Assembly (NCBI GenBank): GCA_041600715.1
Contig: JBFIJM010000001.1
Coordinates: forward strand, 387-64,386
Direction of reading: 5' to 3'
DNA length: 64,000 bases
Origin: Candidatus Saccharimonadales bacterium
Lineage (GTDB): Bacteria > Patescibacteriota > Saccharimonadia > Saccharimonadales > 2-12-FULL-41-12
The first letter of the stretch is position 1. Each line of letters opens with the position of its first letter. Of the stretch, positions 2 to 30,900 are shown one piece after another. Position numbers and translations under genes: made by a program. The notes under the pieces were generated by a model. It worked only from the letters and a program-made list of their open reading frames with translations, did no database searches and was not told where the DNA came from.

Positions 2-3000
2 GGATTAACCTTTACCAGCGGTAACCTAGCTCTAGGCGGAGGCAATATAAGCGACGTTGGAACACTCGGTCTCTCCGGTGCCATCACCGGCGCAACAGCT
101 ACTAACACTATCAACGGCCTGATAATTAACTCGGGTGCCTTAAGTGGTATAACAGGCATAACCTTCACTAGTGGTGGTCTAAACCTAAACAGTGGAGGCA
201 TTACAAATGCTGGGGCTATAGCAGGGGCAACAACCATCTCTGCTTCTGGTTTGGTTACATCAGTTGGTCTCACCTCTGGTAGCGGGTTGATCCAAGGCAC
301 TGGTGGTCTAACTATTACTGGTGCCACAAACATCAATACAAGCGGTTCAACAGTAGTAAATATCGGTAATGCATCCACTCCGCTTACTATTACTTCAACA
401 GGCTTCAAAGTTACTTCTGGTGGTGCTATTACGGGAGTATCTACACTCGGTCTCTCCGGTGCCATCACCGGCGCAACAGCCACCAACACCATCAACGGTC
501 TAATAATTAACTCGGGTGCCTTAAGTGGTATAACAGGCATAACTTTCACTAGTGGCGCACTCAACCTAAACAGTGGTGGTATTACCAACACAGGCTCTAT
601 CGCTGGTGCCACTACACTTAACCTGTCCGGTGCCATAACGGGCGCAACAGCCACCAACACCATCAACGGTCTAATAATTAACTCGGGTGCCTTAAGTGGT
701 ATAACTGGTTATAGTCAGTCAAGCGGTAACTTCGCAATAAGCGGAACCGGAACATTCAGCACTGGTACCGGCGTGCTTACATTGAACGGGGCAACAAGTA
801 TAAGCGGATCTAATAACTTTAGTGTCGGCACTGGAACTGCAATATTCGGGGGGCGCATTAATGCTAATGCAGGAATCACAGTAGCTACCGGTCAAAGTCT
901 CACAGTCAACGGGGATGCGTTGACTGATTTAGTAGGTAACGGACTACAAAACACTGCAGGTGTACTTACTATCGATGCAACCACTGCTGGTACGGTAGCA
1001 GGTACCGGCTCAAACTCCGGTCTAGTGGTGTCAGCTGACGGGCTGAGTCTGCTCCGAGGTTGTGCCAATAACCAAATTCTTAAGTGGTCGACTACCGGAC
1101 CACAATGGAACTGCGCAGCAGATAATACGGGCGTATCTGATTCACGAGTTAAGAAAAATGTCGTAACTATTAATGATAATATTCTCGATACATTAAAAAA
1201 TATACGAGTTGTTGAGTTTGATTACATTTGTGAAAGTCCAGCGTTTGACACTCAGCATTGTGATATAGACCATCAGTTTGGAGTAATCGCTCAAGAGCTA
1301 CAGGCTCTCTTCCCTGAACTAGTGTTTGAAGACGCGAATGGTTATCTAAACGTTCGTTATGACATGCTTGGTATCTATAATCTCAAAGCAGTCACTAGAT
1401 TAGCTACACTGTTAAGCTATAACGGGGACGCTTGGTTAAACAATGTCAGTACGGGCAATACACTCCGCCTTACCAGCACCGGTCAGCTGCAAAACATCAC
1501 AGGACTCTCTATTACCTCAGGGGGTGCATCTATAGTGGGAGGTATAAACAACAATAACGGCGGTCTTACTAATACGGGGAGTATCGCGGGCGCTAGTACC
1601 ATAAACGCATCGGGGCTTATTACGACTACGGGTGGTCTTGTTACTTCTGGCGCAACAAGCAATATTAACGTTAGCTCTAACTTTGCAACGAATATTAATA
1701 CTGGCACTAGCACAGGAGCAATTAATATAGGTAATGGAACTGCTTCTAATACGGTCAATATAGGGAACGGTCTTACAGCTTTCTCATTGAATTCAACAGG
1801 GGTTGATATATCAAGTGCTGGTGTGATCAGTGGTATCACGGGATTATCCGCAAACGGCAACACTGGCAGTACTATCGCAACGTGTACAGCAGGTCAGTAT
1901 ATAGGTAATGGTGTGCGTGTAGATAATGGAATAATTACTGCAGGAACCTGTCGTAACGACGCGTCAGGTATCTCGGATGAGAGAGTTAAGAAAGATGTAG
2001 CCAGTGTAGGCTCTATTCTAGATAGGATAGCTGATATAAACGTCGTGAGCTTTAACTTCAAAGTATCTGAAATGCCACAACTTAATCTAGATCACGGCTT
2101 GCAGTACGGTGTTATTGCACAGCAACTAGAGCAGTTATTCCCAGAGCTTGTATCGCAACGTGAAGACGGATATAAAGAGGTGAACTTCCAAGGACTCAGC
2201 TTTTACAATCTCAAGGCGGTGAGTGAAATAGCTCAATACATAAATGCAGATGGTAGCGCGAGACTCCACAAGCTAAATGTTTCTGGAAACGTTAATGTAG
2301 CTGGCGTGCTGGAGGTTGGAACACTTCGGGTAGACAATATCGAAGGTCTTGATTATCTAGGCCGTATCGACGACCTGGAGAACCAGATCAATAGTAACGA
2401 AGCCCGCCTAACAGCGGTTGAGAATAACCAAAACCTTAATTTAGACCTAAATAACATTACATTAGGTAAGCTCACGGCAACTGCAGATACCTCTCTCCAG
2501 AAGCTAACCGTAAATCTTGATCTCATTGCGAAAGGTGCAATGGTTGTTAATGGCAATGCTACCTTCAAAGAAGCGGTACGATTCGAGAAAGATGTATTAT
2601 TTGAAGGGCAGATTAATGTTCTTGGCTACGCTAATGTACAGGGATTAACTGTAAATCTAGACCTTATTGTTAAGGGGTCAATGGTAGTCGAAGGCAATGC
2701 TACCTTCAAAGAAGCGGTACGATTCGAGAAAGATGCGCTTTTCGAAGGAGACGTTGCTGTGAAAGGTCAAACCACCTTCAATAACGATACTGCTGGTTTG
2801 GTCACCGTGAAGGCAGGGAGTACCACAACACAGGTCACCTTTGATAAAGAGAAGTCAAGGCCACCTATTATCGCTTTGACACTGGGCAATGGTAAGTTCG
2901 CTCAATACAGCTACCGTAATGTTACTAGCCAAGGGTTTGAAGTAGTGTTGGCGACTCCTGCGTTAGAAGACTTGACCTTCTCCTGGGTAGCTATTCAGAC

Positions 3001-3031
3001 TGAAGAAGTAGCCGGGGTAACAGCCCCTTGA
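2..3031 (+). CDS. Tail-fibre-like cell-surface protein (5' end outside window) with two internal peptidase-S74-type intramolecular chaperone domains and an H-type-lectin-like C-terminus
   Basis: The frame of track ORF 251..3031 stays open back to nt 2, so the track start is an internal TTG. G/T/S/N-rich fibre-like repeats. Two SD[SE]RVKK...GVIAQ[EQ]L..LFPELV...YNLKAV segments. Coiled-coil-like DDLENQINSNEARLTAVENN. Duplicated NATFKEAVRFEKD unit. C-terminal VTFDKEKSRPPII..NVTSQGFEVV..FSWVAIQ pattern. Confidence 0.8.
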   Translation, partial: GLTFTSGNLALGGGNISDVGTLGLSGAITGATATNTINGLIINSGALSGITGITFTSGGLNLNSGGITNAGAIAGATTISASGLVTSVGLTSGSGLIQGTGGLTITGATNINTSGSTVVNIGNASTPLTITSTGFKVTSGGAITGVSTLGLSGAITGATATNTINGLIINSGALSGITGITFTSGALNLNSGGITNTGSIAGATTLNLSGAITGATATNTINGLIINSGALSGITGYSQSSGNFAISGTGTFSTGTGVLTLNGATSISGSNNFSVGTGTAIFGGRINANAGITVATGQSLTVNGDALTDLVGNGLQNTAGVLTIDATTAGTVAGTGSNSGLVVSADGLSLLRGCANNQILKWSTTGPQWNCAADNTGVSDSRVKKNVVTINDNILDTLKNIRVVEFDYICESPAFDTQHCDIDHQFGVIAQELQALFPELVFEDANGYLNVRYDMLGIYNLKAVTRLATLLSYNGDAWLNNVSTGNTLRLTSTGQLQNITGLSITSGGASIVGGINNNNGGLTNTGSIAGASTINASGLITTTGGLVTSGATSNINVSSNFATNINTGTSTGAINIGNGTASNTVNIGNGLTAFSLNSTGVDISSAGVISGITGLSANGNTGSTIATCTAGQYIGNGVRVDNGIITAGTCRNDASGISDERVKKDVASVGSILDRIADINVVSFNFKVSEMPQLNLDHGLQYGVIAQQLEQLFPELVSQREDGYKEVNFQGLSFYNLKAVSEIAQYINADGSARLHKLNVSGNVNVAGVLEVGTLRVDNIEGLDYLGRIDDLENQINSNEARLTAVENNQNLNLDLNNITLGKLTATADTSLQKLTVNLDLIAKGAMVVNGNATFKEAVRFEKDVLFEGQINVLGYANVQGLTVNLDLIVKGSMVVEGNATFKEAVRFEKDALFEGDVAVKGQTTFNNDTAGLVTVKAGSTTTQVTFDKEKSRPPIIALTLGNGKFAQYSYRNVTSQGFEVVLATPALEDLTFSWVAIQTEEVAGVTAP
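62..235 (+). repeat. Intragenic 174-nt (58-aa) repeat, dispersed copy A
   Basis: TLGLSGAITGATATNTINGLIINSGALSGITGITFTSGGLNLNSGGITN.G.IAGATT. It is nearly identical at nucleotide level to 443..616. Confidence 0.85.
443..709 (+). repeat. Intragenic tandem repeat, copies B and C (partial), period 171-174 nt
   Basis: Copy B is 443..616 and partial copy C is 617..709. They share long identical nucleotide runs, for example caccaacaccatcaacggtctaataattaactcgggtgccttaagtggtataac. Confidence 0.85.
1136..1414 (+). other. Peptidase S74 / endosialidase-chaperone-like domain, copy 1
   Basis: SDSRVKKNVVTINDNILDTLKNIRVVEFDY...HQFGVIAQELQALFPELVFEDANGYLNVRYDMLGIYNLKAVTRLA. Ser and the Lys five residues later (the catalytic dyad spacing of the family) are present. 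Preceded by C..ILKW....W.C..D. Confidence 0.75.
1973..2233 (+). other. Peptidase S74 / endosialidase-chaperone-like domain, copy 2
   Basis: SDERVKKDVASVGSILDRIADINVVSFNF...LQYGVIAQQLEQLFPELVSQREDGYKEVNFQGLSFYNLKAVSEIA. The Ser/Lys(+5) dyad is present and a Cys pair precedes it. Confidence 0.75.
2504..2749 (+). repeat. Two 141-nt-period coding repeats (LTVNLDLI.KG.MVV.GNATFKEAVRFEKD.LFEG)
   Basis: Units start at 2504 and 2645. An identical 43-nt core ggcaatgctaccttcaaagaagcggtacgattcgagaaagatg occurs at 2552-2594 and 2693-2735. Confidence 0.85.
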
Positions 3032-12261: not shown

Positions 12262-14196
12262 CTATAGGAGGGTAGAAGGATCTAGGTCAGTCGTAGCTGT
12301 TTTTGGAACATGCTCGAGTAGAGCTATTAGGCTGGCGCGTTTTTTACTCTTGGCTACAACCTGCCAATGCCATTTGCCGGCTCTCTTCGAAAAGAATGAT
12401 GGTGAAGGGTCTAGAATCTCAACATCATCAGAACATTGACCAAGGAGTTGCTTGTGGAGCTGACGAGACGCTTTTTCTGCAGATGCTTCAGAAGCACGCG
12501 ATAGTTCTATCTTCATAAGATACCTGAAAGGTGGAAAACCGTACTTCTGCCGTGCGATAAGCTCTCTCTTGTAAAATGTTTCCCAACTATTTTTTTGTTC
12601 GCTTAATAAGGACAGTTCTTTAGCATTTCCATAGGACTGTAAAATTATTGTTCCAGAGCCGTGGCCTCGACCTACTCGACCCGACACTTGATGAAGTAAT
12701 TGGAATGATTTCTCCTCAGAGCTAAAATCTGGAAACTTTAAGGCATCCTCTGCAAGCAGTATGCTGACCAAACTGAGCTTGGGTAGATCATGGCCCTTAA
12801 CTACAAGTTGAGTGCCTATTAAAATATCGACTTTACCACTATGTATTTGCTCGTAGTTTTCCTGAAAAGTATCGCCCGTCTTGTTGTCTTTATCATAACG
12901 TCCGATTCTAGCAGTTGGAAAAAGCTTTCTTAAAGACGACTCAATCTGCTTTGTTCCGGGACTTTTAAAGATGATGTCAGAAGACTTACATTCGGCGCAG
13001 TTATTTGGCGCTCCTGTACTTTCCCCGCACGTATGGCAAACTAAAGAATGAGAATCTTCATGATATGTGTAGTTAATGTTACATCTGTCGCATATTGCCG
13101 ACCATCCACATTTTTGGCATAAGAGCTTGCGGGAGGTCCCTCGTTTGTTAAGAAAGAGAAGGCATTGTTTATTATCATCTAAGGTGTTTCGGACGGACTG
13201 AATAAGTGTTTTGGACAGTAAAGGATGGCTACTTTTTTCACTGGCATCACTTAGATCTACAACAACCGTTGTAGTAGTAAAAGTACTTGTTACTGCTTTT
13301 TCAGTTAATCGATGCACCTTTGCACCCTTTGAAACTGCATAAAAAAAGTCTTCAACGGGGGGTGTAGCAGAGCCAAGAATTAACCGTGCTCCATGTGAAC
13401 GAGATAAAGACGCAGAAACTCGCACTGCATTGTACCTTGGCGCCTGCTGTTGCTTATATGAACTATCATGAAACTCATCAACTACTATTAAGCCTATGTT
13501 TGGTATCGGATAGAAAAGTGCAGAGCGGGGACCAATAAGTACATGGGGCTGGTTGCTTCGAACAGAATTCCAAATTTTAGTGCGCTGTGCTGGTGTAATT
13601 TTGGAGTGCACTACGTGAACCATCGAGAAGCTCTTTTGGAGCGTGGCTAAAAGTTGAGGCGTTAAGTTAATCTCTGGGGTTAGAATAATGGCCGATTTGC
13701 CATCTGTTATACATTGCTTCATCAACTCTATGTATAGGCGTGTCTTACCCGTGCCTGTATCACCATGTACTATGTGTGTTCGCGTGTTACTGGATTGTAT
13801 ATCGGCTAATACTTTAGCTTGTTCCATTGTTAATGTCGGCAAGTTGGCATCGAGATATTCTGCAGGACTAGCAGATACTTTCTCTTCAGAGATTGTAGTA
13901 GTTGGAGGAAGCATTAAGCTCGCCACCGAAGATACTGGTACAGCGTAATATTGACTGATCCAATCGATGAACTTAAGGGACTCTTTAGAGAGCTGACTAT
14001 TTGTAACTACTTTATAGACTGGTTTAACATTAAATGTCGGCATATTAACCTTTTTAGTAACTACGGCTTTAATCTTTTTTGTACGAAGCATTACAACAAT
14101 TATCTGGCCTGACTTAAGCTGAAGGTCAGATGAATAGGTCAGACTACCAGAGCCTTTATAAGATCTGTCTGCAGGTATCACCTCATAGTAGTACAT
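12262..14196 (-). CDS. priA: Primosomal protein N' (replication restart helicase)
   Basis: GDTGTGKT Walker A, VVDEFH, Cys-rich zinc module CQKCGW..CDRC..CHTCG..CAEC, and the C-terminal helicase lobe. Confidence 0.9.
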   Translation of the reverse strand: MYYYEVIPADRSYKGSGSLTYSSDLQLKSGQIIVVMLRTKKIKAVVTKKVNMPTFNVKPVYKVVTNSQLSKESLKFIDWISQYYAVPVSSVASLMLPPTTTISEEKVSASPAEYLDANLPTLTMEQAKVLADIQSSNTRTHIVHGDTGTGKTRLYIELMKQCITDGKSAIILTPEINLTPQLLATLQKSFSMVHVVHSKITPAQRTKIWNSVRSNQPHVLIGPRSALFYPIPNIGLIVVDEFHDSSYKQQQAPRYNAVRVSASLSRSHGARLILGSATPPVEDFFYAVSKGAKVHRLTEKAVTSTFTTTTVVVDLSDASEKSSHPLLSKTLIQSVRNTLDDNKQCLLFLNKRGTSRKLLCQKCGWSAICDRCNINYTYHEDSHSLVCHTCGESTGAPNNCAECKSSDIIFKSPGTKQIESSLRKLFPTARIGRYDKDNKTGDTFQENYEQIHSGKVDILIGTQLVVKGHDLPKLSLVSILLAEDALKFPDFSSEEKSFQLLHQVSGRVGRGHGSGTIILQSYGNAKELSLLSEQKNSWETFYKRELIARQKYGFPPFRYLMKIELSRASEASAEKASRQLHKQLLGQCSDDVEILDPSPSFFSKRAGKWHWQVVAKSKKRASLIALLEHVPKTATTDLDPSTLL

Positions 14197-14250
14197 AGTA
14201 GTTAACAGTATACAACGCTAAGCCATAATAAGGTTTTTTATGAAAAAATG

Positions 14251-14279
14251 TTGAAATGATAGCGAGGACGGTCTATACT
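14251..14279 (+). promoter_or_regulatory. Promoter for the wHTH gene
   Basis: TTGAAA (14251-14256), 17-nt spacer, TATACT (14274-14279). Confidence 0.55.
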
Positions 14280-14311
14280 ACCCGTTGTTACAACAACATC
14301 GGAAAGAGCTT

Positions 14312-14596
14312 ATGTTAGACGTATTTATTACATCAAGGGTGAGACGCAAAATTATTGTGGTCTATGCTAAGTACCCAGACTTTAAAACACACGTTCGCGG
14401 TCTTGCTAAACTAATAAAAGAAGATGCAGGTAATATTCAGCGTGAACTCAAGCGTTTAGAGAAGATTGGCTTCTTGATGAGTGAGAAACAAGCGAATACC
14501 AAGATCTACTACACTAACAAGCAGTTTCCTATTTTTAAAGAGCTACAAAGCATTGTTCTGAAGTCGCAACGTGCTACTCAGAAAAAGCAACAGTAA
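14312..14596 (+). CDS. Small winged-helix (ArsR/MarR-like) DNA-binding protein, putative
   Basis: GLAKLIKEDAGNIQRELKRLEKIGFL resembles a wHTH recognition helix plus wing. The ATG at 14312 follows GGAAAGAG. The track start (TTG 14285) lies only 5 nt after the -10 box. Confidence 0.45.
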   Translation: MLDVFITSRVRRKIIVVYAKYPDFKTHVRGLAKLIKEDAGNIQRELKRLEKIGFLMSEKQANTKIYYTNKQFPIFKELQSIVLKSQRATQKKQQ

Positions 14597-14599
14597 CTC

Positions 14600-14628
14600 T
14601 TGTAATATATAAGTTTATCAGATACAAT
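14600..14628 (+). promoter_or_regulatory. Promoter of rpsU (near-leaderless)
   Basis: TTGTAA (14600-14605), 17-nt spacer, TACAAT (14623-14628). The ATG follows 8 nt later with no SD. Confidence 0.55.
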
Positions 14629-14636
14629 AATTCGCG

Positions 14637-14846
14637 ATGATACAAGTTACAAGAAAAGACTCTAAGGAGTCGACAGAAAATTTATTACGACGTTTTACTC
14701 GTAAGGTTCAGCAATCTGGAGTGATTGCCGAAGCAAAGTCTATTCAAAGATTTGAAAAGCCAATGAGCAAGCGAGACCGACGCCAAAAGGCGATTGTTCG
14801 TCGTGAGCGTAAAGCACTGAAGGTCAAAAAACTTAAGCTATCTTAA
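14637..14846 (+). CDS. rpsU: 30S ribosomal protein S21
   Basis: ESTENLLRRFTRKVQQSGVIAEAK..FEKPS-like..KRDRRQKA pattern typical of S21. Confidence 0.85.
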   Translation: MIQVTRKDSKESTENLLRRFTRKVQQSGVIAEAKSIQRFEKPMSKRDRRQKAIVRRERKALKVKKLKLS

Positions 14847-14855
14847 GTATCCTTC

Positions 14856-15308
14856 ATGATAAAGCAGACAATAGAATCTGACATAAAAAATGCAATGCTT
14901 GCTGGCGACAAGCAACTAGTATCTACGCTCCGAACAATTAAGAGCGTTATTCTTGATGCCGAAATAAGAGAAGGCGCAAGGGATAAAGGCTTGCCAGAAG
15001 AAGTAGTAGTGGCTTTGCTTCAAAAAGAAGCAAAGAAACGGTCAGAAGCTTCAGAACTTTATGCTAATGCAAACGACCAAGAGAGAGCCGACAAGGAACT
15101 TTACGAAAAAGACGTACTTCAAAAGTACTTGCCAGAGCAACTAGACGAAACTGCGATTACTGGTGTAGTTAATGAAGTGTTAGCCTCTATGGACAATCCA
15201 AATATTCAGATGATGGGGCAGGTCATAGGTGCTGTTAAGGCACGAACAGGTGCCTCTGCTGATGGAGCGGTAATAGCCAGAATTGTAAAAGAACGACTAG
15301 CAAAGTAA
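14856..15308 (+). CDS. yqeY: GatB/YqeY domain protein
   Basis: IKNAMLAGDK..V.TLR.IKS....EI and a C-terminal MGQVIGAVKARTGASADGAVIARIVKE pattern. Confidence 0.8.
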   Translation: MIKQTIESDIKNAMLAGDKQLVSTLRTIKSVILDAEIREGARDKGLPEEVVVALLQKEAKKRSEASELYANANDQERADKELYEKDVLQKYLPEQLDETAITGVVNEVLASMDNPNIQMMGQVIGAVKARTGASADGAVIARIVKERLAK

Positions 15309-15319
15309 GGGAAGAGTAA

Positions 15320-15853
15320 ATGATTGTTTTTATGGGTGTTGCAGGGGCTGGGAAGAGTGTGCAAGGTACATTGCTTGCTAAGGATATTGGGTATAAGTGG
15401 CTGTCGACTGGCGAGCATTTACGTGCAAGTATAAGTGGTGAGCGAAAAGCAGAAATGTTAAAGGGCAAGCTCCTTGATGACCAGGAAATAATCGATATAC
15501 TGATAGATTTTTTTAACAGTATTGAAGATACTGATCACTGCATTTTAGATGGATTCCCCAGGACGTTGCGTCAAGCAGAGTGGCTTTACGAGCAACATGA
15601 AAAAGGCGCTATAAAAGTGTCTGATGTTATATATCTTGATGCCTCACTAGAGGTTGTCGAGAAACGATTGTTAGCCCGAGGGCGACCTGATGATACAGAA
15701 GAAGTTATACACCGTCGTTTTGATGAGTATGAGAAGGCTACTTTGCCTATTATCGATTGGTTTAAGCAGAAGGGCATGCGTGTTCACGAAGTAAATGCAG
15801 AGAGAACTGTCGAAGAAATACATGCAGACATAATGGAACGGCTTCAGAGGTAG
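15320..15853 (+). CDS. adk: Adenylate kinase (short-lid type)
   Basis: P-loop GVAGAGKS, LDGFPRT, and RGRPDD as a short LID. Followed by map, as in spc-operon ends. Confidence 0.75.
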   Translation: MIVFMGVAGAGKSVQGTLLAKDIGYKWLSTGEHLRASISGERKAEMLKGKLLDDQEIIDILIDFFNSIEDTDHCILDGFPRTLRQAEWLYEQHEKGAIKVSDVIYLDASLEVVEKRLLARGRPDDTEEVIHRRFDEYEKATLPIIDWFKQKGMRVHEVNAERTVEEIHADIMERLQR

Positions 15854-15857
15854 AGAA

Positions 15858-16619
15858 GTGTTTACACGCATAAAGACAGAAGAAGAGCTGGATAACATGC
15901 GTCGTGCTGGAGGGATACTGGCATCTATTCACAGAACTCTAAAGAGCAATTTAGAGCCGGGTATTAGTACTAAAGAACTAGCAGACATAGCGCGAAAAGA
16001 ACTAAAGTCGCTGGGAGGTGTGCCGGCATTTTTAAACTATGGTCCAGCCAGCAATCCGTTTCCTGATGTTGTGTGTATATCGGTGAACGATGAAGTAGTA
16101 CATGGTGTTCCAAAGAAGAGTAAGATCGTACAGGAAGGCGATCTCGTTAGCTTCGACCTAGGTGTTAGTGTTAATGGCATGATTACTGACGCAGCAATCA
16201 CAGTTCCTTGTGGCACTGCCACACCCGAGCATTTAGAGTTTTTGGCTCATACTAAAAAATCATTAGATGCTGGGCTTAAAGTGCTCAAACACGGTTGTAA
16301 GGTAGGCGATATCGCTTTTGCTGTGCAGAAGTCCCTCGAAAAACATAACTACGGAATTGTGCGAGATCTTGTTGGGCATGGAGTAGGGCACTATGTACAT
16401 GAAGATCCGAATATTCCTAACTACGGTAGAAAAGGTACCGGACAACAGCTTGTAGCTGGTATGACCGTAGCAATCGAACCTATGGCAACGCTCGGTAATT
16501 ATGCAATTCACACAGACGATGACGGCTGGACAATAAAAACAAATGACGGGTCTTGGTCGGCTCACTTTGAACATACTGTTTTGATCACTGATAAGGGTTG
16601 TGAAATATTAACTGTGTGA
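15858..16619 (+). CDS. map: Methionine aminopeptidase, type I
   Basis: GTG start. The N-terminus IKTEEELDNMRRAGG, plus VVHG.P, D..V..NG...D, GHGVG...HE.P, and EHT at the C-terminus. TGA stop. Confidence 0.95.
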   Translation: MFTRIKTEEELDNMRRAGGILASIHRTLKSNLEPGISTKELADIARKELKSLGGVPAFLNYGPASNPFPDVVCISVNDEVVHGVPKKSKIVQEGDLVSFDLGVSVNGMITDAAITVPCGTATPEHLEFLAHTKKSLDAGLKVLKHGCKVGDIAFAVQKSLEKHNYGIVRDLVGHGVGHYVHEDPNIPNYGRKGTGQQLVAGMTVAIEPMATLGNYAIHTDDDGWTIKTNDGSWSAHFEHTVLITDKGCEILTV

Positions 16620-16673
16620 TCAGATAGTCTCACAGGCTTTTATCTTTTACGTTTACGCTTTATACTGATGATT

Positions 16674-17912
16674 ATGAGCGAACAACAGCCCACCTATTTC
16701 TTTGGGCTAGATATCGGTACAAGCGCAGTCCGTTGCGTAGTAGGCAGTCTCCATCTTACGAGCGAGGAGCCTCGTGTTTCTGTATTGGGCCACGGCGAAG
16801 CGCCAAACATGGGAATGAGAAAAGGACTCATCGTACACATCGATGAAGTAACTAGTGCTGTTAACCAAGCAGTGAGTGAGGCAGAACGTATTGCTGGAGT
16901 TCCAATCAGGAATGCCACAGTTAATATTAACGGTGCGCATATTGCGGGCGTAGACTCTCGGGGTGTAATTGCAATTAGTACCGCCAACAAAGAGATATCC
17001 TTGGAAGATAAGATTCGTGCCGAAGACGCAGCCACAATCATGCAAATACCGGCAAACCGCGAAATCATACAAGTATTCCCTAAGAATTACAGAGTAGACG
17101 GCCATGACAGTATTAAAGACCCTGTTGGGATGAGCGGAGTTCGCTTGGAGGTTGATACTCATATCGTCACCGTAGCCACTCCGAATATTCGCAGTCTAGA
17201 CGCAGTACTCGAAAAAGCCCACATCGAGGCTTCTCACCATACTGTTTCTGGGCTCGCTTCAGCCGAAGCTGTACTTAGCAGACAGCAAAAAGAGGCTGGA
17301 ACATTGGTCCTTGATATTGGTGCGGGAACAACCAATATGGCAATTATTGAAGACGGAGAAGTTCAGCATGTCGCTGTAATCCCGTTAGGTGGAATTAGCA
17401 TAACAAACGATTTAGCAATTGGTCTTAAGACAGAACTAGAAGTAGCCGAAGGAGTTAAGGTAAAACATTCGGCACTTGCTGACGCGGTCAAGGATGGTAA
17501 GGTGAGTTTTGAGTATGAACGACGGAATCATGTGTTTAATGCCAGTGAAGTTAACATGATAATTGAAGCGCGAGTTGAAGAGATATTTGAGTTTGTAGAC
17601 AAGGAACTTCGTAAGATTCACAAATCCCGAAAGCTCCCAGGAGGAGTTGTTTTGGTAGGCGGAACTTCAAATATACCAGGAATCGCTGAGTTCGCTCGTG
17701 AAAAACTTCAACTACCTGCTCGGCTTGGAAAACTAATTAATGTAGCTGGTATCACTGATAACGTGGAGAAGCCCGAATATGTGACTTCTGTGGGTCTTAT
17801 GCAACTGGATATGCTATTTGCTGAGCAAATGCTAGACAGCAAGCCTGCCAGAGCTGCTGTTAGAGGTTCTATAGTGGAAAACATCGGTAATTTACTCAGC
17901 AAATTTAAATAA
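16674..17912 (+). CDS. ftsA: Cell division protein FtsA
   Basis: Actin-fold motifs GLDIGTS, DIGAGTT and LVGGTSNIPG. The ATG at 16674 lies 7 nt after TATACT (16661-16666), whereas the track ATG at 16668 is only 1 nt after the box. Confidence 0.9.
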   Translation: MSEQQPTYFFGLDIGTSAVRCVVGSLHLTSEEPRVSVLGHGEAPNMGMRKGLIVHIDEVTSAVNQAVSEAERIAGVPIRNATVNINGAHIAGVDSRGVIAISTANKEISLEDKIRAEDAATIMQIPANREIIQVFPKNYRVDGHDSIKDPVGMSGVRLEVDTHIVTVATPNIRSLDAVLEKAHIEASHHTVSGLASAEAVLSRQQKEAGTLVLDIGAGTTNMAIIEDGEVQHVAVIPLGGISITNDLAIGLKTELEVAEGVKVKHSALADAVKDGKVSFEYERRNHVFNASEVNMIIEARVEEIFEFVDKELRKIHKSRKLPGGVVLVGGTSNIPGIAEFAREKLQLPARLGKLINVAGITDNVEKPEYVTSVGLMQLDMLFAEQMLDSKPARAAVRGSIVENIGNLLSKFK

Positions 17913-18018
17913 GTATGCAGATAATGTTGTTAATAGAAGATATACGTTTGAACCATAACTGTAGCTGCGCTATACTGCCAGGTACAGTTATAGACGAGCG
18001 AGAAGGAGATTCGTTGTT

Positions 18019-19329
18019 ATGCCTCAGGTTTCACCGGCTATAGAAACATTTGCACGTATTAAAGTTGTTGGCGTGGGCGGCGCTGGTGGTGCAGCCATTA
18101 ATCGCATGGTAGAAGCAGGCGTAGAGGGTGTAGAATTCATTGCAGTCAACACCGACGCCCAAGCGCTTCATCATTCTAAAGCAACTACTAAAATTCATAT
18201 CGGTCACGAATCTACTCGCGGACTCGGCGCGGGTGCTGATCCAAGCGTTGGTCAGCAAGCAGCAGAAGAGTCGTATGATGACATAAAAGCTGCCTTAGAG
18301 GGCGCAGACATGGTATTTATTACTATAGGCGCTGGTGGTGGCACAGGAAGTGGCGCTGGTCATATAGTAGCTAAGATAGCGCAAGACCTAAACTCTTTAG
18401 TTGTTGGTTTTGCAACTCGCCCCTTCGCGTTCGAAGGCGAGAAAAGAAAAGCTAATGCCGAAATAGCAATTTTAAACTTACGACACTGCGTGGATACGCT
18501 TATTATTGTTCCAAACGACAGATTGCTACAAACAATCGATCGTTCAACCCCGATCATGCAAGCCTTCAAGGTAGCAGACGATGTACTGCGCCAAGGGGTT
18601 CAAGGAATATCAGATCTTATTACAGTTCACGGTCTTATTAACTTGGACTTTGCAGATGTTAAGGCTGTCATGAGTAAAGCTGGTTCAGCGCTTATGGGTA
18701 TTGGCCGAGCGTCAGGAGATAACCGGGCAGTAGAGGCAGCTCAACAAGCAGTAGAATCTCCACTACTAGAAGTTTCAATTGATGGAGCAAGAGGCATCCT
18801 CTTTAACGTTATTGGCGGAAATGATATGTCTATGCACGAAATTAATACGGTTGCCGAAACAATCACAGCTTCTGCTGATCGTGATGCTAACATTATTTTT
18901 GGAGCTACCATCAACCCAGAATTAGACGGTGAGTTGATAGTAACTGTTGTAGCCACTGGGTTTGATGAATCATATTTTGCAAAAGGTAGTACAGGTAGTT
19001 CAGACACTGTCGTTAGTTCTTATACTCCACCCCGAAAAGAAGAACCAGCAACTACCTCTCAGGATGTTCCAGACGACATTAATATGGACCTGGACGAAAC
19101 AAAAGGCAAAGATGTATCCGATGATTTTCATGGCGAAAACAAAGTTCCTAATATCTGGTCACACATTGATTCCGAAGACGAGAAAGATAGCGGAACAGAT
19201 GCCGACAACGACACTGATAATAAGAGCACAAAAAATGTATACAACGACGAAGAGCTTGATAAGCCCTCATTTTTACGTCGGTTAACCCGCCGTAGTACAG
19301 ATAAAAAAGACGCCGAAGACGATAATTAA
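18019..19329 (+). CDS. ftsZ: Cell division GTPase FtsZ with long acidic C-terminal linker
   Basis: GVGGAGGAAINRM, GGGTGSGAG (tubulin signature), NDRLL, and the C-terminal peptide DKPSFLRRL. GAAGGAG SD. Confidence 0.97.
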   Translation: MPQVSPAIETFARIKVVGVGGAGGAAINRMVEAGVEGVEFIAVNTDAQALHHSKATTKIHIGHESTRGLGAGADPSVGQQAAEESYDDIKAALEGADMVFITIGAGGGTGSGAGHIVAKIAQDLNSLVVGFATRPFAFEGEKRKANAEIAILNLRHCVDTLIIVPNDRLLQTIDRSTPIMQAFKVADDVLRQGVQGISDLITVHGLINLDFADVKAVMSKAGSALMGIGRASGDNRAVEAAQQAVESPLLEVSIDGARGILFNVIGGNDMSMHEINTVAETITASADRDANIIFGATINPELDGELIVTVVATGFDESYFAKGSTGSSDTVVSSYTPPRKEEPATTSQDVPDDINMDLDETKGKDVSDDFHGENKVPNIWSHIDSEDEKDSGTDADNDTDNKSTKNVYNDEELDKPSFLRRLTRRSTDKKDAEDDN

Positions 19330-19358
19330 CTTACTGTAATTAATACAGCGGAAAATGC

Positions 19359-19387
19359 TTGCATTACGCTAGCTATGGGGCTATGAT
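19359..19387 (+). promoter_or_regulatory. Promoter of nrdR
   Basis: TTGCAT (19359-19364), 17-nt spacer, TATGAT (19382-19387). Confidence 0.5.
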
Positions 19388-19396
19388 CAATAGTAT

Positions 19397-19426
19397 ACAC
19401 GCTATATGTAGTAAAAAAGTATAGCG
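19397..19426 (+). promoter_or_regulatory. Candidate NrdR operator at the nrdR transcription start
   Basis: ACACGCTATATGTAGT resembles the 16-bp NrdR box (acaCwAtATaTwGtgt) in about 11 of 16 positions. Inverted repeat CGCTATA-N13-TATAGCG. Confidence 0.3.
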
Positions 19427-19471
19427 ATCGTACGTTGAAATTGAATAACTAAGGTGTGCAAGGAGGACGTA

Positions 19472-19945
19472 TTGAATTGCAATCGTTGCCATGCAGCCGA
19501 TACAAAGGTAATTGAGTCCCGCGAGGTGACAAACGGCAAAGCTATCCGCAGACGAAGAGTCTGCAGTAGCTGTCAGTACCGGTTTACAACCTACGAGCGA
19601 ATTGAACAGCCTCAGCTTATTGTTATAAAGAACAACAACGTTAGAGAGCTCTTCAATAGGGAAAAGTTAATTGCTGGTCTGTATCGAGCATGCGAAAAAA
19701 CACCCGTCACAAGTCTGCAGTTAGAACAACTTGTGTCTGACGTAGAGCAACAGCTTTACGAATGTGGTGAGAATGAAGTTCCTTCAACCAAAATCGGTGA
19801 GCTTGTCATGGACAATCTTTCCGCACTGGATGAAGTTGCATATGTACGTTTCGCAAGTGTCTATCGTCGATTCAAAGATATCGCTAGCTTTGAACGAGAG
19901 TTATCAGACATACGTAAACGTAAACGAGAGCTTATCGAAACGTAG
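19472..19945 (+). CDS. nrdR: Transcriptional repressor NrdR
   Basis: Zinc ribbon CNRC...CSSC followed by an ATP-cone. TTG at 19472 sits 5 nt after AGGAGG (19461-19466) and gives the canonical M.C..C N-terminus. The track GTG at 19454 is an extension. Confidence 0.9.
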   Translation: MNCNRCHAADTKVIESREVTNGKAIRRRRVCSSCQYRFTTYERIEQPQLIVIKNNNVRELFNREKLIAGLYRACEKTPVTSLQLEQLVSDVEQQLYECGENEVPSTKIGELVMDNLSALDEVAYVRFASVYRRFKDIASFERELSDIRKRKRELIET

Positions 19946-20015
19946 GCAATCTACGAGAAATTTCGATAGTTTTCCTCAACATTCAAATCAGGTGAATGGT
20001 GCGGAGAGCTGAATT

Positions 20016-20044
20016 ACATCTATATCCTAGAGACGTATAGATGT
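20016..20044 (+). promoter_or_regulatory. Inverted repeat upstream of the nrdJ promoter (candidate NrdR operator)
   Basis: ACATCTATA-N11-TATAGATGT. It ends about 4 nt before a TGACTC/18 nt/TATAAT (20072-20077) promoter and shares the CTATA..TATAG core with 19400-19426. Confidence 0.3.
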
Positions 20045-20095
20045 GAATGACTCTAACAAAAACCTAAAAAATATAATCTAAAAAGTGAGGGTATT

Positions 20096-22861
20096 ATGGG
20101 ACAAGCTACTAACTTAAGCGTAAGTAGGCTCTTTACTGAGCCGAAGACAAAAGGCTATGACAGCCTAAATTGGGTGTCGACTGATTCGGTCATTGCAAAC
20201 CCGATGACAGGTAAGAATGTGTTTGAGCAACGAGGCGTGGAATTTCCAGATTCGTGGTCTCAGAATGCGATTAATATCGTGGCACAAAAGTACTTTACCG
20301 GTACTCCTGGCACAAAAGAACGCGAAAGCTCGTTAAAAGACCTTATTAATAGGGTAGTAGACACCATAACTCGTCAAGGAATTCAGGAGAATTACTTTGA
20401 TAGCGAAAAAGAAGCTGAAGATTTTAAGGAAGAATTAAAGTACATTCTTGCGACTCAGCGTGCCGCATTTAATTCACCAGTTTGGTTTAACATAGGCGCA
20501 CCAGACCGAGCCCAGCAGGCAAGTGCATGCTTTATCTTAGGTATCGAAGACACTATGCCAGCAATCCTTAACTGGTATAAAGAAGAGGGGATGGTATTTA
20601 AGGGTGGTTCAGGCGCTGGGATTAATCTGAGCGTTATTCGTTCTTCCGTGGAATCACTAGGTAAAAGTGCCGGAACAGCTTCTGGACCTCTGAGTTTTAT
20701 GCGCGGTGCTGATGCTTCTGCTGGCGCGATCAAAAGTGGCGGAAAAACTCGTAGAGCAGCGAAGATGGTTATTCTTAACGCAGACCATCCCGACATAGAA
20801 GAATTTATTTGGTGCAAATCTCGAGAAGAAGAAAAAGCTCGCGTACTTCAGGCTAATGGCTTTGATATGAGTCTCGACGGCAAAGACATTCATTCTGTTC
20901 AATACCAGAACGCCAATAACTCGGTGCGTGTTACTGATGAGTTCATGCAGGCTGTAGAAGATGACGCAGACTGGGAGCTTAAGGCAGTGAAAGACGGCAA
21001 GACTGTGCGTACAGTTCGTGCCCGCGAATTATTCAGGCAGTTTGCAGACGCAGCATGGCGTTGTGCTGACCCAGGTATGCAATTCGACACTACAATCAAC
21101 CATTGGCACACAACCCCGAACGCAGGTAGGATCAATGGCTCAAACCCTTGTAGTGAGTATATGCACTTAGATAACTCTGCGTGTAATCTTGCCTCAATTA
21201 ATCTTCTTAAATATCTTAATGATGACGCAAGCTTCGATGTAGAAGGCTTTAAACACACAGTAGAAATGATTTTCACAGCTCAAGAAATTTTAGTTGGTTA
21301 TTCAGAATATCCAACAGAAAGCATTGGCAAGAACGCACGTGCTTATCGTGAGCTTGGACTTGGATATGCTAACTTGGGCGCGTTACTTATGGCTCAAGGT
21401 TTGCCTTATGATTCAGAAGAAGGTCGTGCGCAAGCTGCAGCTATTACAGCAATCATGACCGGACATGCTTATGCTACTAGTGCAAAAATTGCTCGCAAGA
21501 TAGGACCATTTGCTGGTTTCCATAAAGATCGAGAAGGTATGATTCGCGTGCTTAAGCAACACCGAGAAGCGGTAGACTCTATTAATCCATCGCTAGTATC
21601 CGAGAAGTTACTTAGTGCTGCTACTACTGCGTGGGACGACGCGGTAGAGCTGTCAGAGCTTTATGGTGTGCGAAACTCCCAGGCTTCAGTGCTCGCTCCA
21701 ACAGGAACGATCGGCCTTATGATGGACTGTGATACAACAGGTATTGAACCAGATCTTGGTCTTGTTAAGGTCAAGAAGCTTGTGGGCGGTGGAACGATGC
21801 ATATCGTTAACCAAACTGTCCCTCGCGCCCTAAAGGCTTTAGGTTATGACGCTCAGCAGATAGCTAAAATTGTAGAGTATATAGATATCGAAAAGACAAT
21901 TCTTGGTGCTCCAGCACTTAAGAAAGAACATGAGAATGTCTTTGCTTGTTCTATGGGCGACAACTCAATTCATTATCTAGGTCACGTGAAGATGATGTCA
22001 GCGGTGCAACCGTTCCTTTCTGGAGCGATAAGCAAAACCGTGAATATGCCAGAAGAAGCAACTATAGAAGATGTAGAAAAACTACATATCGACGCTTGGA
22101 AGATGGGCCTAAAAGCCGTAGCAATCTACCGCGACAACTGCAAGGTAGCTCAGCCTTTATCTATGGCTAAAAAAGAAGGCGCACAAGAGGCCAAGGAAAC
22201 ACCTGTTGATTCTGTTAACAATCAATATATTGTTAGGGGTGTGGTCCGCCGAGAGATGCCTAAATTCCGGAATGCTAAAACGTTCTCATTCGAGGTAGCA
22301 GGCAGTAAGGGTTACGTAACAGTTGGCGAATTTGAAGATGGCACTCCAGGTGAAGTATTTATGAAGATCGCTAAGCAAGGCTCTACCTTAGGTGGCGTAA
22401 TGGAAGCCTTGGCAGTATCTGTAAGTTATGGCTTGCAGTACGGTGTGCCTCTAAAGAGCTATGTTCACGCACTTACAAGCATGACATTTGCACCGTCAGG
22501 TATTACGGATGACGCAGAAATCCGTACGGCCACATCACTTGTCGACTATATCTTTAAGCGACTAGCTCTTAATTATCTATCATTTGATGATCTCTTAGAG
22601 TTGGGACTCGCGTCAATCGAGGATATGCCCGAAGCTCAGACTAGTTTACTAGTTGAAGCTCCGATAAAGAACGAGCCGATTCAGGCAGACACCGTGGCAG
22701 AAGCTCCAAAGCCTGTGGAGCAAAAGCCAGCAGAAACCTCTCGTCCTAAGGCAAAAAAAGACGATACGGCTCCAATGTGCTTTAACTGCGGTAATCAGAC
22801 ACAGCGTTCTGGTAGCTGTTATGTCTGCACATCGTGTGGTTCCACTACCGGCTGCAGCTAG
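20096..22861 (+). CDS. nrdJ: Ribonucleotide reductase, class II (adenosylcobalamin-dependent)
   Basis: Monomeric or dimeric class II architecture: ..NPCSEY.. active-site loop, SACNLASINL, APTGTIG, and a C-terminal CFNCG...CYVCTSCG zinc tail. Adjacent to nrdR. Confidence 0.9.
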   Translation: MGQATNLSVSRLFTEPKTKGYDSLNWVSTDSVIANPMTGKNVFEQRGVEFPDSWSQNAINIVAQKYFTGTPGTKERESSLKDLINRVVDTITRQGIQENYFDSEKEAEDFKEELKYILATQRAAFNSPVWFNIGAPDRAQQASACFILGIEDTMPAILNWYKEEGMVFKGGSGAGINLSVIRSSVESLGKSAGTASGPLSFMRGADASAGAIKSGGKTRRAAKMVILNADHPDIEEFIWCKSREEEKARVLQANGFDMSLDGKDIHSVQYQNANNSVRVTDEFMQAVEDDADWELKAVKDGKTVRTVRARELFRQFADAAWRCADPGMQFDTTINHWHTTPNAGRINGSNPCSEYMHLDNSACNLASINLLKYLNDDASFDVEGFKHTVEMIFTAQEILVGYSEYPTESIGKNARAYRELGLGYANLGALLMAQGLPYDSEEGRAQAAAITAIMTGHAYATSAKIARKIGPFAGFHKDREGMIRVLKQHREAVDSINPSLVSEKLLSAATTAWDDAVELSELYGVRNSQASVLAPTGTIGLMMDCDTTGIEPDLGLVKVKKLVGGGTMHIVNQTVPRALKALGYDAQQIAKIVEYIDIEKTILGAPALKKEHENVFACSMGDNSIHYLGHVKMMSAVQPFLSGAISKTVNMPEEATIEDVEKLHIDAWKMGLKAVAIYRDNCKVAQPLSMAKKEGAQEAKETPVDSVNNQYIVRGVVRREMPKFRNAKTFSFEVAGSKGYVTVGEFEDGTPGEVFMKIAKQGSTLGGVMEALAVSVSYGLQYGVPLKSYVHALTSMTFAPSGITDDAEIRTATSLVDYIFKRLALNYLSFDDLLELGLASIEDMPEAQTSLLVEAPIKNEPIQADTVAEAPKPVEQKPAETSRPKAKKDDTAPMCFNCGNQTQRSGSCYVCTSCGSTTGCS

Positions 22862-27968: not shown

Positions 27969-30900
27969 ATGGACGAACACCAAAAACAAACACCAATGAC
28001 AGATATTACCCCAGGCGTAAGGCGGGAGGGGTTTGCTGTAATTGATAGGAAGATAAGCGTCAAGAAAGCTCCAGTGAGACTATCTGTTGATGAAAGAGGT
28101 AGTGTACCAGCCTCTGGTGAGATAGATGCAACTTCAGAAGATTTATCGTTAGGCTCCAGCTCTACAGCGACAGTTGTAGTGCCAAACCCTGTAGCCTCAA
28201 ACGTACCTACACCTCAGGCGATGTACGACGGGCATAATTTTGCAGGCAAGGGATCTAAGAAAAGAATTATTTTAACCATTAGTGCGTGGATGGGTGTGTT
28301 TGTACTCATCTCAGCAATTATTTTTGCCGTTGTTTCATCTAGAAGTAATGACGAAAATGCAGAAAACAAAGTTCAACCAATAACTTCAATACCTAAAGAA
28401 GATCTGCTTAGTGCATCACAAAAAGACTTTGGAACACGTAGCGAAGTAACTATAAATGGTCCTCTCCAGGTAAAGAATAAATTTACAATCAGTCCGTCCG
28501 AAAAGCCATTGAATCCACAAGCAGGTCAGATATATTTTGATGGTAAAACAAAACAATTTGTATTTTATGATGGAGAAGGTTACCAAACTCTCATAACTAA
28601 TCAGCTGTCTGATCAGTTCGGTTCATTGAGTCGGGCAGGACCGGGGACGGGGTTGTCACTTAGTGGCACTCAACTTAATAATAGCGGAGTTTTAAGCATT
28701 CAAGGACAATCGGGTAACCTGACAATAACAGGTGGGCCCGGTTTAGTCGTTAACGGCCTACAACTAGCCAATACCGGCGTGCTGTCTGTTCAAGGAACGG
28801 CCGGTAATGTTGTATTTAGCGGTGGAGCAGGTATTGCAGTAAACGGAACACAGATTAGCAATACAGGCGTCTTGTCAGTCGTCGGTACCGCTAACCAGGT
28901 TAGTGTTAGCACGGCAGGTGGAGTAGTGACCGTTTCACTGCCGCAGAACATCTCGACTAATTCATCGCCACTATTCAATGGGCTCAACTTAACCAATGCT
29001 TTATCGGTAGCAAACGGTGGCACAGGATCAAGTGCTATCAACTTTGTTGCAAACGGTTCAGTATATTACGACGGAACACGACTTGTTTCTACTTCTGCAC
29101 CAGCTAGTGCTGGCCTTTGTCTGATTAGCACCGCTGGCGCCCCAGCGTTTGGCACATGTCCTGGCTCCAGTGCGAGTATAGGTGGTTCGGGAACGCCTGG
29201 TGCTATCCCCTACTTTGACTCTGCCAACACAATCGCTGATTCAATAATGGTACAATCCGGATCGACAGTAACAGTTGCCGGAACCTTAGATGCTACATTT
29301 CTAGTGGGAGATGGCTCCAGTGTCACTAATGTTGATGCAACAGCTTTGAGTGGTCAGGGTTCTGCATATTATAGAAACGCATCCAATATAAATAGCGGTA
29401 TACTCGCCACTGCTTACGGCGGCACAGGCTTGGCAACGACCCCTGCTAACGGACAATTATTAATTGGTAACGGATCTGGCTATAGCCTTGGTACAATCGG
29501 TAATGGTGGCGGATTAACTGTAACTAACGGAGTCGGTACTATCAGTGTTGCGGTAAATTATGGTTCAACCGCCAACACCTCGGCAGAAGGTGATAAACAG
29601 ATAACTGTAACTGCTGGAACTAACTTAACTGGTGGCGGTGTTGTGACAATTGGTGCTGGCGGAACACTGACACTGAATGTTGCGAGTAGTCCAACCTTCT
29701 CGGGTAATTTAAGTGTTCAGGGTGGGTCCGCTACACTTGGCACTGTGTCACAAGCAGGTTCATTAGTGCTAAATGACGGTGCAGGCAATATTGGGACTCT
29801 CCAGGTGGCTTCGCTTGGGCAAGGAACTATTTATACCTTGCCCGATCCAGGTGTAGCCACAGCGACCATTTGTCTAACGACCAACAACTGTGTTGGTCCT
29901 AATGGTGGTGGCGTTACTTCAACTGGAACAGCTAATAAACTAGTAATATTTAGCGGTGGCGCATATAGCCTAGCTGATTCAATCGTTACTCAGTCTTCCG
30001 GCCTTATTACAGTAGACGGTAATCTTTCTGCGACTGCCCTGCAGGGCAACGGAGCAGGATTAACTGACCTTGATGCCGGAAACATAACCACTGGTATATT
30101 ATCAATCGCACGAGGCGGTACTGGTATAAGTCTAACTCCGAACAATGGACAGCTTCTGATAGGTAATGGTACTGGTTATAGTCTAGCTACAATAACCAAT
30201 GCTGATGGCACGGTAGAAATAGTTACTGGCCCAGGTAGTATACAGATCTCGGTTCCAAGAGCTGACCAGTGTGCGACTTGTGCAGACTATACACTTAGCA
30301 ACTTAGCAGATGTAATAGCTATAAATAAATCTCTGCTACCTGCATCTGCAGGCAGTATCAGTCTCGGTGGCGCAGGATTGCCATATCAATATCTATACCT
30401 CTCAGGGGATGAAGTAGCCAATCCAGGGAGTAATTACTTTACTATTACCGGCGATGCTTCTGCTCAGCGAACAATTACCTTGCCGGATGCATCCGGTATA
30501 GTTTGTCTCGATAACGGTAACTGTGCAGGTGCGGGCGGCGGCATAGTCGGTAGTTCTGCAGGTACCACAGGGTATCTCCCAGTCTATACGGGTAGCTACA
30601 CTATAGCTGACAGTATTGTCAGTCAATCATTGGGGGTTCTGTCTGTCGGTGGAAATTTGAACGTAAGTGGTAACGTCTCAATAACTAATGGCTTGACAGT
30701 AACAAACAATATTTCTGCTGCATCATTTAATAACCTTACCCTAACCGCTCTAGCAGATGGCTTCAGCTTATTGGGTGGAACAACCTCTCGAACGCTAACT
30801 GTGCAAGGCAGTAACATTACACTTAATCAAAGCCTTCAGACAACAGACACCCCAAATTTCTCGGGCCTCACTCTTTCTAACTCCCTAGGTGTAGCCTATG

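Follow-up and report, generated by a model that had tools for sequence, protein, structure and literature searches.

The 64,000-nt window analyzed here (contig JBFIJM010000001.1, assembly GCA_041600715.1, from a Candidatus Saccharimonadales bacterium; positions below are those of this whole stretch) opens with the 3' part of a giant gene encoding a fibre protein. It is followed by the genes for ribosomal protein S1, IF-2, Fmt, Def and PriA and, farther away, by those for RNR and a class I aminoacyl-tRNA synthetase. Frame 2 is open from the edge of the window to the stop codon at 3029-3031, and 1009 aa of the fibre protein are visible, its N-terminus lying beyond the window. The visible portion is probably the C-terminal third of a very large fibre of about 2,500 aa. 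Within it we found two Peptidase_S74 domains, the self-cleaving chaperone domains (ICA domains) of phage fibres, both placed inside the chain and followed by more fibre and a lectin-like C-terminal tip (Table 1).

Table 1. Features of the fibre gene and of the gene that adjoins it (nucleotide positions in the window; aa numbers refer to the visible protein)
Feature	Position	Strand	Evidence
3' part of giant fibre gene, 1009 codons + stop	2..3031	+	Open frame 2 from window edge to stop; 5' end outside window
Shaft repeats, Gly/Thr/Asn-rich units such as GLSGAITGATATNTINGLIINSGALSGITG	62..786	+	DNA direct repeats; matches to PHROG tail-fibre families
Neck A, Cys pair C354...C371, C-x16-C (CANNQILKWSTTGPQWNC)	1061..1114	+	Kept before S74 in six relatives
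S74/ICA domain 1, aa 379-476	1136..1429	+	PF13884, 53.8 bits, E 2.4e-14; AF2 core pLDDT 70-83
Fibre segment 2, opening with restart motif NNVSTGNTLRLTSTGQLQNITGLSITSGGASIVGGINNNNGG	1430..1882	+	Motif recurs after S74 in many relatives
Neck B, Cys pair C628...C650, C-x21-C	1883..1951	+	84-86% identical to necks of relatives P0004 and P0024
S74/ICA domain 2, aa 658-752	1973..2257	+	PF13884, 55.7 bits, E 6e-15; AF2 core pLDDT 72-86
Short heptad (coiled-coil-like) helix, aa 789-808, IDDLENQINSNEARLTAVEN	2366..2425	+	Predicted helix, model residues 45-64
Duplicated 47-aa beta-rich unit, aa 835-881 and 882-928	2504..2785	+	33/47 aa identical
H-type-lectin-like six-stranded beta-sandwich, aa 931-998	2792..2995	+	PF09458, 22 bits (cut-off 24); fold; relatives
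Candidate partner gene, 153-aa protein with one N-terminal transmembrane helix	3095..3556	+	Synteny; no Pfam match

Pfam found Peptidase_S74 (PF13884) twice in the visible protein (whole-protein E-value 2.9e-29), and both copies, scanned separately, scored above the gathering score of 22 bits (Table 1). The domain envelopes were set by a family-specific hidden Markov model (HMM), and their starts at 1136 and 1973 matched exactly those given in the initial annotation, which had been made from the letters alone and had proposed two internal S74 domains with an S-D-x-R-x-K start. Both copies indeed share the start S-D-S/E-R-V-K-K together with the motifs GVIAQxL..LFPELV and YNLKAV. The Ser-Lys dyad stands in S-D-x-x-x-K spacing as S379/K384 in domain 1 (SDSRVK; Ser379 codon at 1136-1138, Lys384 codon at 1151-1153) and as S658/K663 in domain 2 (SDERVK; Ser658 codon at 1973-1975, Lys663 codon at 1988-1990). 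The two S74/ICA domains, with their motifs intact, are real and not due to chance, and judged by these motifs both are apparently catalytically intact. Neither is C-terminal, as 533 aa follow copy 1 and 257 aa follow copy 2. The pair of cysteines noted before each domain in the initial annotation was also present (C354/C371 and C628/C650), with the second Cys of each pair 8 residues before the S74 Ser. A third pair, C410/C420 (nt 1229-1261), lies inside copy 1, and copy 2 has no such pair. All six Cys of the visible 1009 aa thus fall into three local pairs, as expected outside the cytoplasm.

Comparison with solved structures gave the same assignment. Among PDB sequences, the S74 region (domain 2) matched the chaperone part of phage S16 gp37 (6f45_A, E 2.7e-6). 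An AlphaFold2 (AF2) monomer model of aa 335-800 had a mean pLDDT of 61, with both S74 cores at 70-86 and in the same helix/strand order; for S74 copy 1 the model rested on a shallow alignment, because MAFFT had put all single-S74 relatives on copy 2. The best PDB fold match of the modelled S74 region was the ICA domain of MyRF (7dc3; E 6e-4, 28% identity, TMt 0.55), followed by endoNF (3gw6) and GA-1 (3gud).

We further compared the fibre with its relatives, which are Saccharimonadales/Patescibacteria proteins of 1200-2850 aa, and whose source labels, where given, are mostly Candidatus Saccharimonadales, Saccharibacteria or Patescibacteria (metagenome-assembled genomes, MAGs). Across 84 S74 copies from these relatives, Ser1, Asp2 and Lys6 are invariant (84/84) and Arg4 occurs in 73/84, while the identity between family copies falls to about 42-47%. 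Invariance of Ser, Asp and Lys at such low identity, with a variable Arg4, is what one would expect if selection acts on catalysis and not on the fold alone. An internal S74 is the norm in this fibre family, unlike in phage proteins: in 81 of the 84 copies, 140-615 aa separate the domain from the C-terminus, and the other three look truncated. Two S74 domains are present in nine relatives from independent samples (P0005, P0008, P0009, P0011, P0012, P0020, P0229, P0230 and L014), with neck combinations A+B, B+B and A+A, and the double-S74 gene of L014 is complete (2024 aa). The initial annotation had called this arrangement atypical, which is true with respect to phage proteins but not within the fibre's own family, where it is typical.

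The two copies in the window are 42% identical to each other, whereas copy 1 shares 66% identity with the only S74 of L002p, which stands between neck A and this lectin tail, and copy 2 shares 79% with the only S74 of P0086, which stands between neck B and this tail. A local tandem duplication of S74 was therefore rejected, and the greater closeness of each copy to the S74 of another protein suggests that the architecture arose by module shuffling. On its sequence, the window protein looks like a unit of shaft, neck A and S74 joined to a unit of short shaft, neck B, S74 and tail. Neck A is conserved before S74 in P0002, P0007, P0013, P0027, L002p and L014p, and the same tail directly follows either neck A and S74 (L002p, P0088) or neck B and S74 (P0086). 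The restart motif (VSTGGxLRLTxxGxLQNIxGLxxxSGGASxVGGxNNNxGG) comes after S74 in many relatives and after copy 1 in the window; it is also found after the last S74 in relatives that end in another tip ('CRLQY...LQLR'), and C-terminal tips are swapped among the relatives. The architecture of the full-length protein was derived from L002, L014, L015 and P0086-88. The N-terminus of full-length relatives (among them L002p with 2853 aa, P0086 with 2636 aa and L014p with 2024 aa) comprises a basic stretch, one hydrophobic helix, '..YTRAG..RVYAA' and a conserved domain of ~150 aa (LNFQARL...), a composition by which these relatives carry an export signal or anchor.

The C-terminus is H-type-lectin-like according to its modelled fold and to the PF09458 matches of its family. 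In the model of aa 745-1009, the tip forms six strands at pLDDT 82-98, and Foldseek ranks 1-7 were all occupied by solved H-type lectins (2ce6, 2ccv, 4q56, 2cgy, 2vme, 2vm9 and 3wmp; E 5e-4 to 8e-3), with Helix pomatia agglutinin, H. aspersa agglutinin, discoidin II and SLL-2 as the top folds; C-terminal beta-sandwiches of phage tailspikes and pyocin fibres ranked after them. The fold comparison was needed because the tail profile, when searched against PDB sequences, matched discoidin-II only, and weakly (E 0.42). Within the family, 38 of 48 homologous tails matched PF09458 at E <= 0.01 (best E 6.9e-8), and the tail of relative P0091 reached 25.2 bits. The tip thus shares with H-type lectins a six-stranded beta-sandwich of about 70-100 aa and differs from them in having only 14-22% sequence identity and a Pfam score just below the cut-off. 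The H-type lectin C-terminus of the initial annotation was accordingly borne out by the fold and by the related tails, but not by the Pfam score of the protein itself. Known members of the H-type lectins are trimeric, which fits a trimeric fibre.

We next considered how widely this tail is distributed. A word-indexed homologue search returned 3 proteins when the tail was the query and 9 when the double-S74 region was, and an exhaustive search of representatives was used for the tail. In that search, the tail was matched by 1213 representative clusters, almost always at the extreme C-terminus, in proteins of up to 3515 aa. Among the tail bearers of at least 800 aa, 25 have an upstream S74 and 59/84 do not, and for five of the S74-less bearers a Pfam scan likewise showed no S74. 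By its distribution among these sequences, the tail is an independent, widespread tip module. A domain of ~130 aa (GDVVxxD..G...VGVV...AxAGxVxVKVSxExGxIxxGDxLTSSxxPGVAMKA), which has no Pfam match, follows S74 (or the shaft) and precedes the lectin tail in P0018, P0034 and P0085 and in many S74-less tail bearers (e.g., P0100, P0106 and P0109).

The remaining parts of the visible protein are repetitive. The shaft DNA holds a direct-repeat family (D1) at 62-234, 443-615 and 614-786, in the same region that matches PHROG tail-fibre families. Beneath the 47-aa unit, whose duplication had been correctly recognized at the outset, lies a DNA direct repeat (2505-2607 and 2646-2748) with 83% identity and 141 nt spacing. 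Tandem Repeats Finder reported no repeats, those present being too diverged or too widely spaced for it, and self-BLAST of the fibre protein returned the identity match only. The coiled-coil-like stretch placed downstream of the second S74 is present as a heptad helix with the a/d pattern I-L-I-N-L-V, read directly from the sequence, but it spans only ~20 aa. Two antisense open reading frames (ORFs) inside the fibre gene, at 1483-1863 (-; 126 aa) and 2353-2568 (-; 71 aa), are Pro/Val/Leu-rich and of low complexity, and most likely just reflect the repetitive Gly/Thr/Asn coding on the opposite strand and are not genes.

These results suggest, with a probability that we would put at roughly 55%, that the gene encodes a Sec-exported, homotrimeric surface fibre of the Saccharibacterium, built of phage-tail-fibre-like modules and most likely serving adhesion to the glycans of another cell. 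In the proposed architecture, an N-terminal signal or anchor and N-domain (seen only in full-length relatives) would lead into a long Gly/Thr/Asn-rich shaft, Cys-knot neck A and ICA-1, after which a short shaft, Cys-knot neck B, ICA-2, the heptad helix and the beta-rich repeat would extend to a trimeric H-type-lectin tip. Each ICA (S74) domain would trimerise through its own helices, and the ICA trimer would set the folding register of the beta-helical stretch that directly precedes it, as happens in endosialidase, T5 pb1 and MyRF. In the assembled trimer, the Ser-Lys dyad would then cut the chain immediately before Ser379 and Ser658, which would give three trimeric products, namely a cell-proximal shaft ending at neck A, an ICA-1/fibre-2 piece (aa 379-657, 279 aa, 28.5 kDa) and an ICA-2/lectin piece (aa 658-1009, 352 aa, 38.3 kDa), which may or may not stay together. 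By analogy with characterized domains, and in view of the invariant Ser and Lys, which favour cleavage over a purely structural role, both sites are probably cut once the trimer forms. Self-cleavage of an S74 domain has been shown at S782 of Bdellovibrio Bd3182, a cellular trimeric adhesin (PMC10769870). The internal ICA of MyRF also cleaves itself, trimerisation by its own C-terminal helix being a sufficient trigger (PMC8326128), and release of the T5 pb1 chaperone unmasks the receptor-binding domain (PMC4690869).

Several points weigh against this picture. The AF2 models are monomeric and of moderate confidence (mean pLDDT 61 and 69), with shaft segments below 50. The S74/ICA domains of the window are about 95 aa long, compared with 133 aa in T5 pb1, and are also shorter than the ICA domains of endoNF and MyRF, which have roughly 130-150 aa; their terminal helix spans only about 2.5 heptads. 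Phage ICA cleavage relies on an upstream Arg that acts as a 'folding sensor', and no such Arg was identified when it was sought in necks A and B. At the tip, the PF09458 scores were below the cut-off of 24, with 16.2 bits (E 0.012) for the full protein and 22.0 bits for the tail alone. Moreover, if the pieces separated, the cell-bound shaft would lose its conserved, diversifying tip, a puzzling outcome for a simple adhesin.

The S74 domains might instead be permanent in-line trimerisation nodes, either uncut or cut without separation, in a single cell-anchored fibre with a distal lectin tip, an explanation that we regard as possible but doubtful. Both this reading and that of three cleavage pieces had been put forward in the initial annotation, and they are the pertinent alternatives. 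In many relatives the conserved restart motif comes right after S74 and is followed by a conserved tip, which would be easiest to understand if the tip stays attached, and the same tip covalently ends S74-less fibres. In addition, the window S74 domains fall short of the released phage chaperones in length, and the C-terminal end of the T5 chaperone is fibre-distal, so that a coaxial continuation of the fibre past an ICA would be geometrically plausible by analogy with T5 (PMC4690869). However, a structural role needs neither the Ser nor the Lys that are invariant in the family, and all S74/ICA domains tested so far (endoNF, T5, MyRF and Bd3182) cleave once trimeric. Cleavage could also serve a different end, the in-line S74 domains being programmed break points at which the fibre, exported as one chain and folded as a trimer, cuts itself into a cell-bound shaft and one or two shed trimeric modules, including a free ICA-lectin trimer. 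Shed modules of this kind would work at a distance from the cell; they might, for instance, mark or prime host cells, serve as decoys, or permit detachment after contact. We consider this unlikely. Slightly less probable still is that only one site (ICA-1 or ICA-2) is processed, to yield two products, with the other domain acting as a folding node. The copies do differ, since copy 1 has a disulfide-type Cys pair in a variable hairpin and is preceded by neck A, while copy 2 has neck B and no such pair, and single-S74 relatives show either type alone before the tail; yet the full S-D-x-R-x-K motif is present in both copies with equal PF13884 scores, and no sequence feature separates an active from an inactive copy.

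The matches of the S74 regions to PHROG tail-fibre families and to phage S16 gp37 could point to a tail-fibre gene, or its remnant, from a phage, prophage or tailocin, and the double S74 could be an assembly chimera, but we hold both to be highly improbable. Among 50,697 phage records, matches (30-39% identity) were confined to the S74 part and the tail had no match, and an IMG/VR scan returned a lone locus, again matching the S74 part only. The fibre gene stands among the housekeeping genes named above, which led us to reject a prophage or tailocin fibre, and no other ORF across the 64 kb, phage-like or otherwise, carried an S74 domain. Loci of the relatives hold ParA/ParB and signal peptidase, and the N-terminus of the relatives is an export signal and not a virion-attachment domain. 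The fibre gene is thus cellular and not phage, in agreement with the earlier description of a cellular gene without phage context. The nine independent double-S74 relatives, from different samples, likewise led us to reject an assembly chimera.

For an exported, adhesive surface fibre of this kind, the closest analogue is the family of mosaic adhesive trimer (MAT) fibres of Bdellovibrio bacteriovorus (Caulton et al. 2024, PMC10769870). MAT fibres are likewise cellular and carry a signal peptide and a conserved N-terminal domain, which in MAT fibres is beta-rich (for the window family these are seen in the relatives, and the two are likened by description). They form long, trimeric, phage-like fibres with interchangeable, mosaic tips, lectin folds among them; a subgroup of these fibres carries an SDxxxK S74 domain, and Bdellovibrio lives by attaching to other bacteria. 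In contrast, the S74 of MAT fibres ends the protein and is an alternative to the adhesive tip (a beta-sandwich 'substitutes for the S74 chaperone'), whereas the S74 of the window protein is internal and doubled, with the tip in the same chain; MAT proteins also have about 1000 aa compared with 1200-2850 aa here. Saccharibacteria are unmentioned in the text of the supplementary files of that study, including Table S3, which covers MAT-like proteins of other organisms (PMC10769870). Phage chaperones (K1F endosialidase CIMCD, 3GW6; T5 pb1, 4UW8; S16 gp37, 6F45) share the Pfam family, the catalytic motif and a position right after a fibre tip with the window domains, but they are C-terminal, single and discarded, whereas the window domains are internal and in tandem, with more fibre and a lectin after them.

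MyRF, which provided the best structural match (7DC3), resembles the window protein in having an internal ICA with a long polypeptide after it and an S-x4-K Ser-Lys dyad. It differs in having a single ICA, a downstream transmembrane helix and an upstream Ndt80-type DNA-binding domain, and in being cytoplasmic/ER-facing, whereas the window protein is a fibre, presumably extracytoplasmic, whose closest full-length relatives have an N-terminal signal or anchor and not a DNA-binding domain. Hydropathy analysis of the visible 1009 aa gave no 19-residue window above Kyte-Doolittle 1.4, and no hydrophobic one after either S74; with no transmembrane segment downstream of S74 in this portion, a MyRF-like membrane release was rejected. 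In the literature searched, no report of S74 proteins or of proteins resembling tail fibres came up for Saccharibacteria, and no paper dealt with internal or tandem S74 domains apart from the internal one of MyRF. What is known, then, is phage-derived trimeric adhesin fibres with an ICA, and what appears to be new is the in-line, repeated use of ICA together with a lectin tip in Saccharibacteria.

The lectin tail was also found in a set of twelve giant Patescibacteria proteins (P0053, P0093, P0096, P0098, P0100, P0101, P0103, P0109, P0121, P0133, P0138 and P0148) that start with two MerR-type helix-turn-helix domains and continue through one transmembrane helix into a fibre of 1700-3500 aa. 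Five of them (P0053, P0096, P0098, P0103 and P0121), which are more distant from the window protein, have an internal S74. Their parts (DNA-binding domain, transmembrane helix and ICA) recall those of MyRF in a different order. This composition hints at membrane-tethered regulators with an extracellular fibre, and in the five proteins with an S74 and lectin end outside and a MerR-type DNA-binding pair inside, it is possible that a contact-sensing fibre is wired to transcription.

To our knowledge, host recognition and attachment in Saccharibacteria and other Patescibacteria are largely unknown. In the only species examined by transposon sequencing (Tn-seq), adhesins proved essential, yet they are uncharacterised (PMC10633639). 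Fibres that resemble phage receptor-binding proteins and carry swappable tips would thus be concrete candidates for determinants of host range, in parallel to the MAT fibres of Bdellovibrio, and would offer testable host-recognition candidates for an epibiotic lineage. Moreover, an S74 in mid-fibre, sometimes twice, would widen the known uses of this domain, from a terminal disposable chaperone (phages and MAT fibres) and a release switch (MyRF) to an assembly node or break point used in line and more than once.

The 153-aa transmembrane protein encoded directly downstream of the fibre gene may be a partner of the fibre, as suggested by synteny, since a homologue adjoins the fibre gene at its 3' side in relatives' loci L001 (55% identity) and L002 (56%). 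Elsewhere in the window, a second giant protein of 2526 aa (27969-35549, +) has a transmembrane helix near aa 100 and shaft repeats in common with the fibre family, without a Pfam match or an S74. It is directly followed by a Kelch-repeat protein of 1493 aa (35552-40033, +). Among the relatives, loci L011 and L012 have a 2023-aa Kelch protein just upstream of the S74 fibre gene. In L002, from the 720-kb MAG contig CAWIAU010000001.1, the 2853-aa fibre gene is followed after about 2 kb by the start of another very long ORF, weakly similar to the fibre (14120-21826, +), which extends beyond the end of the locus analyzed.

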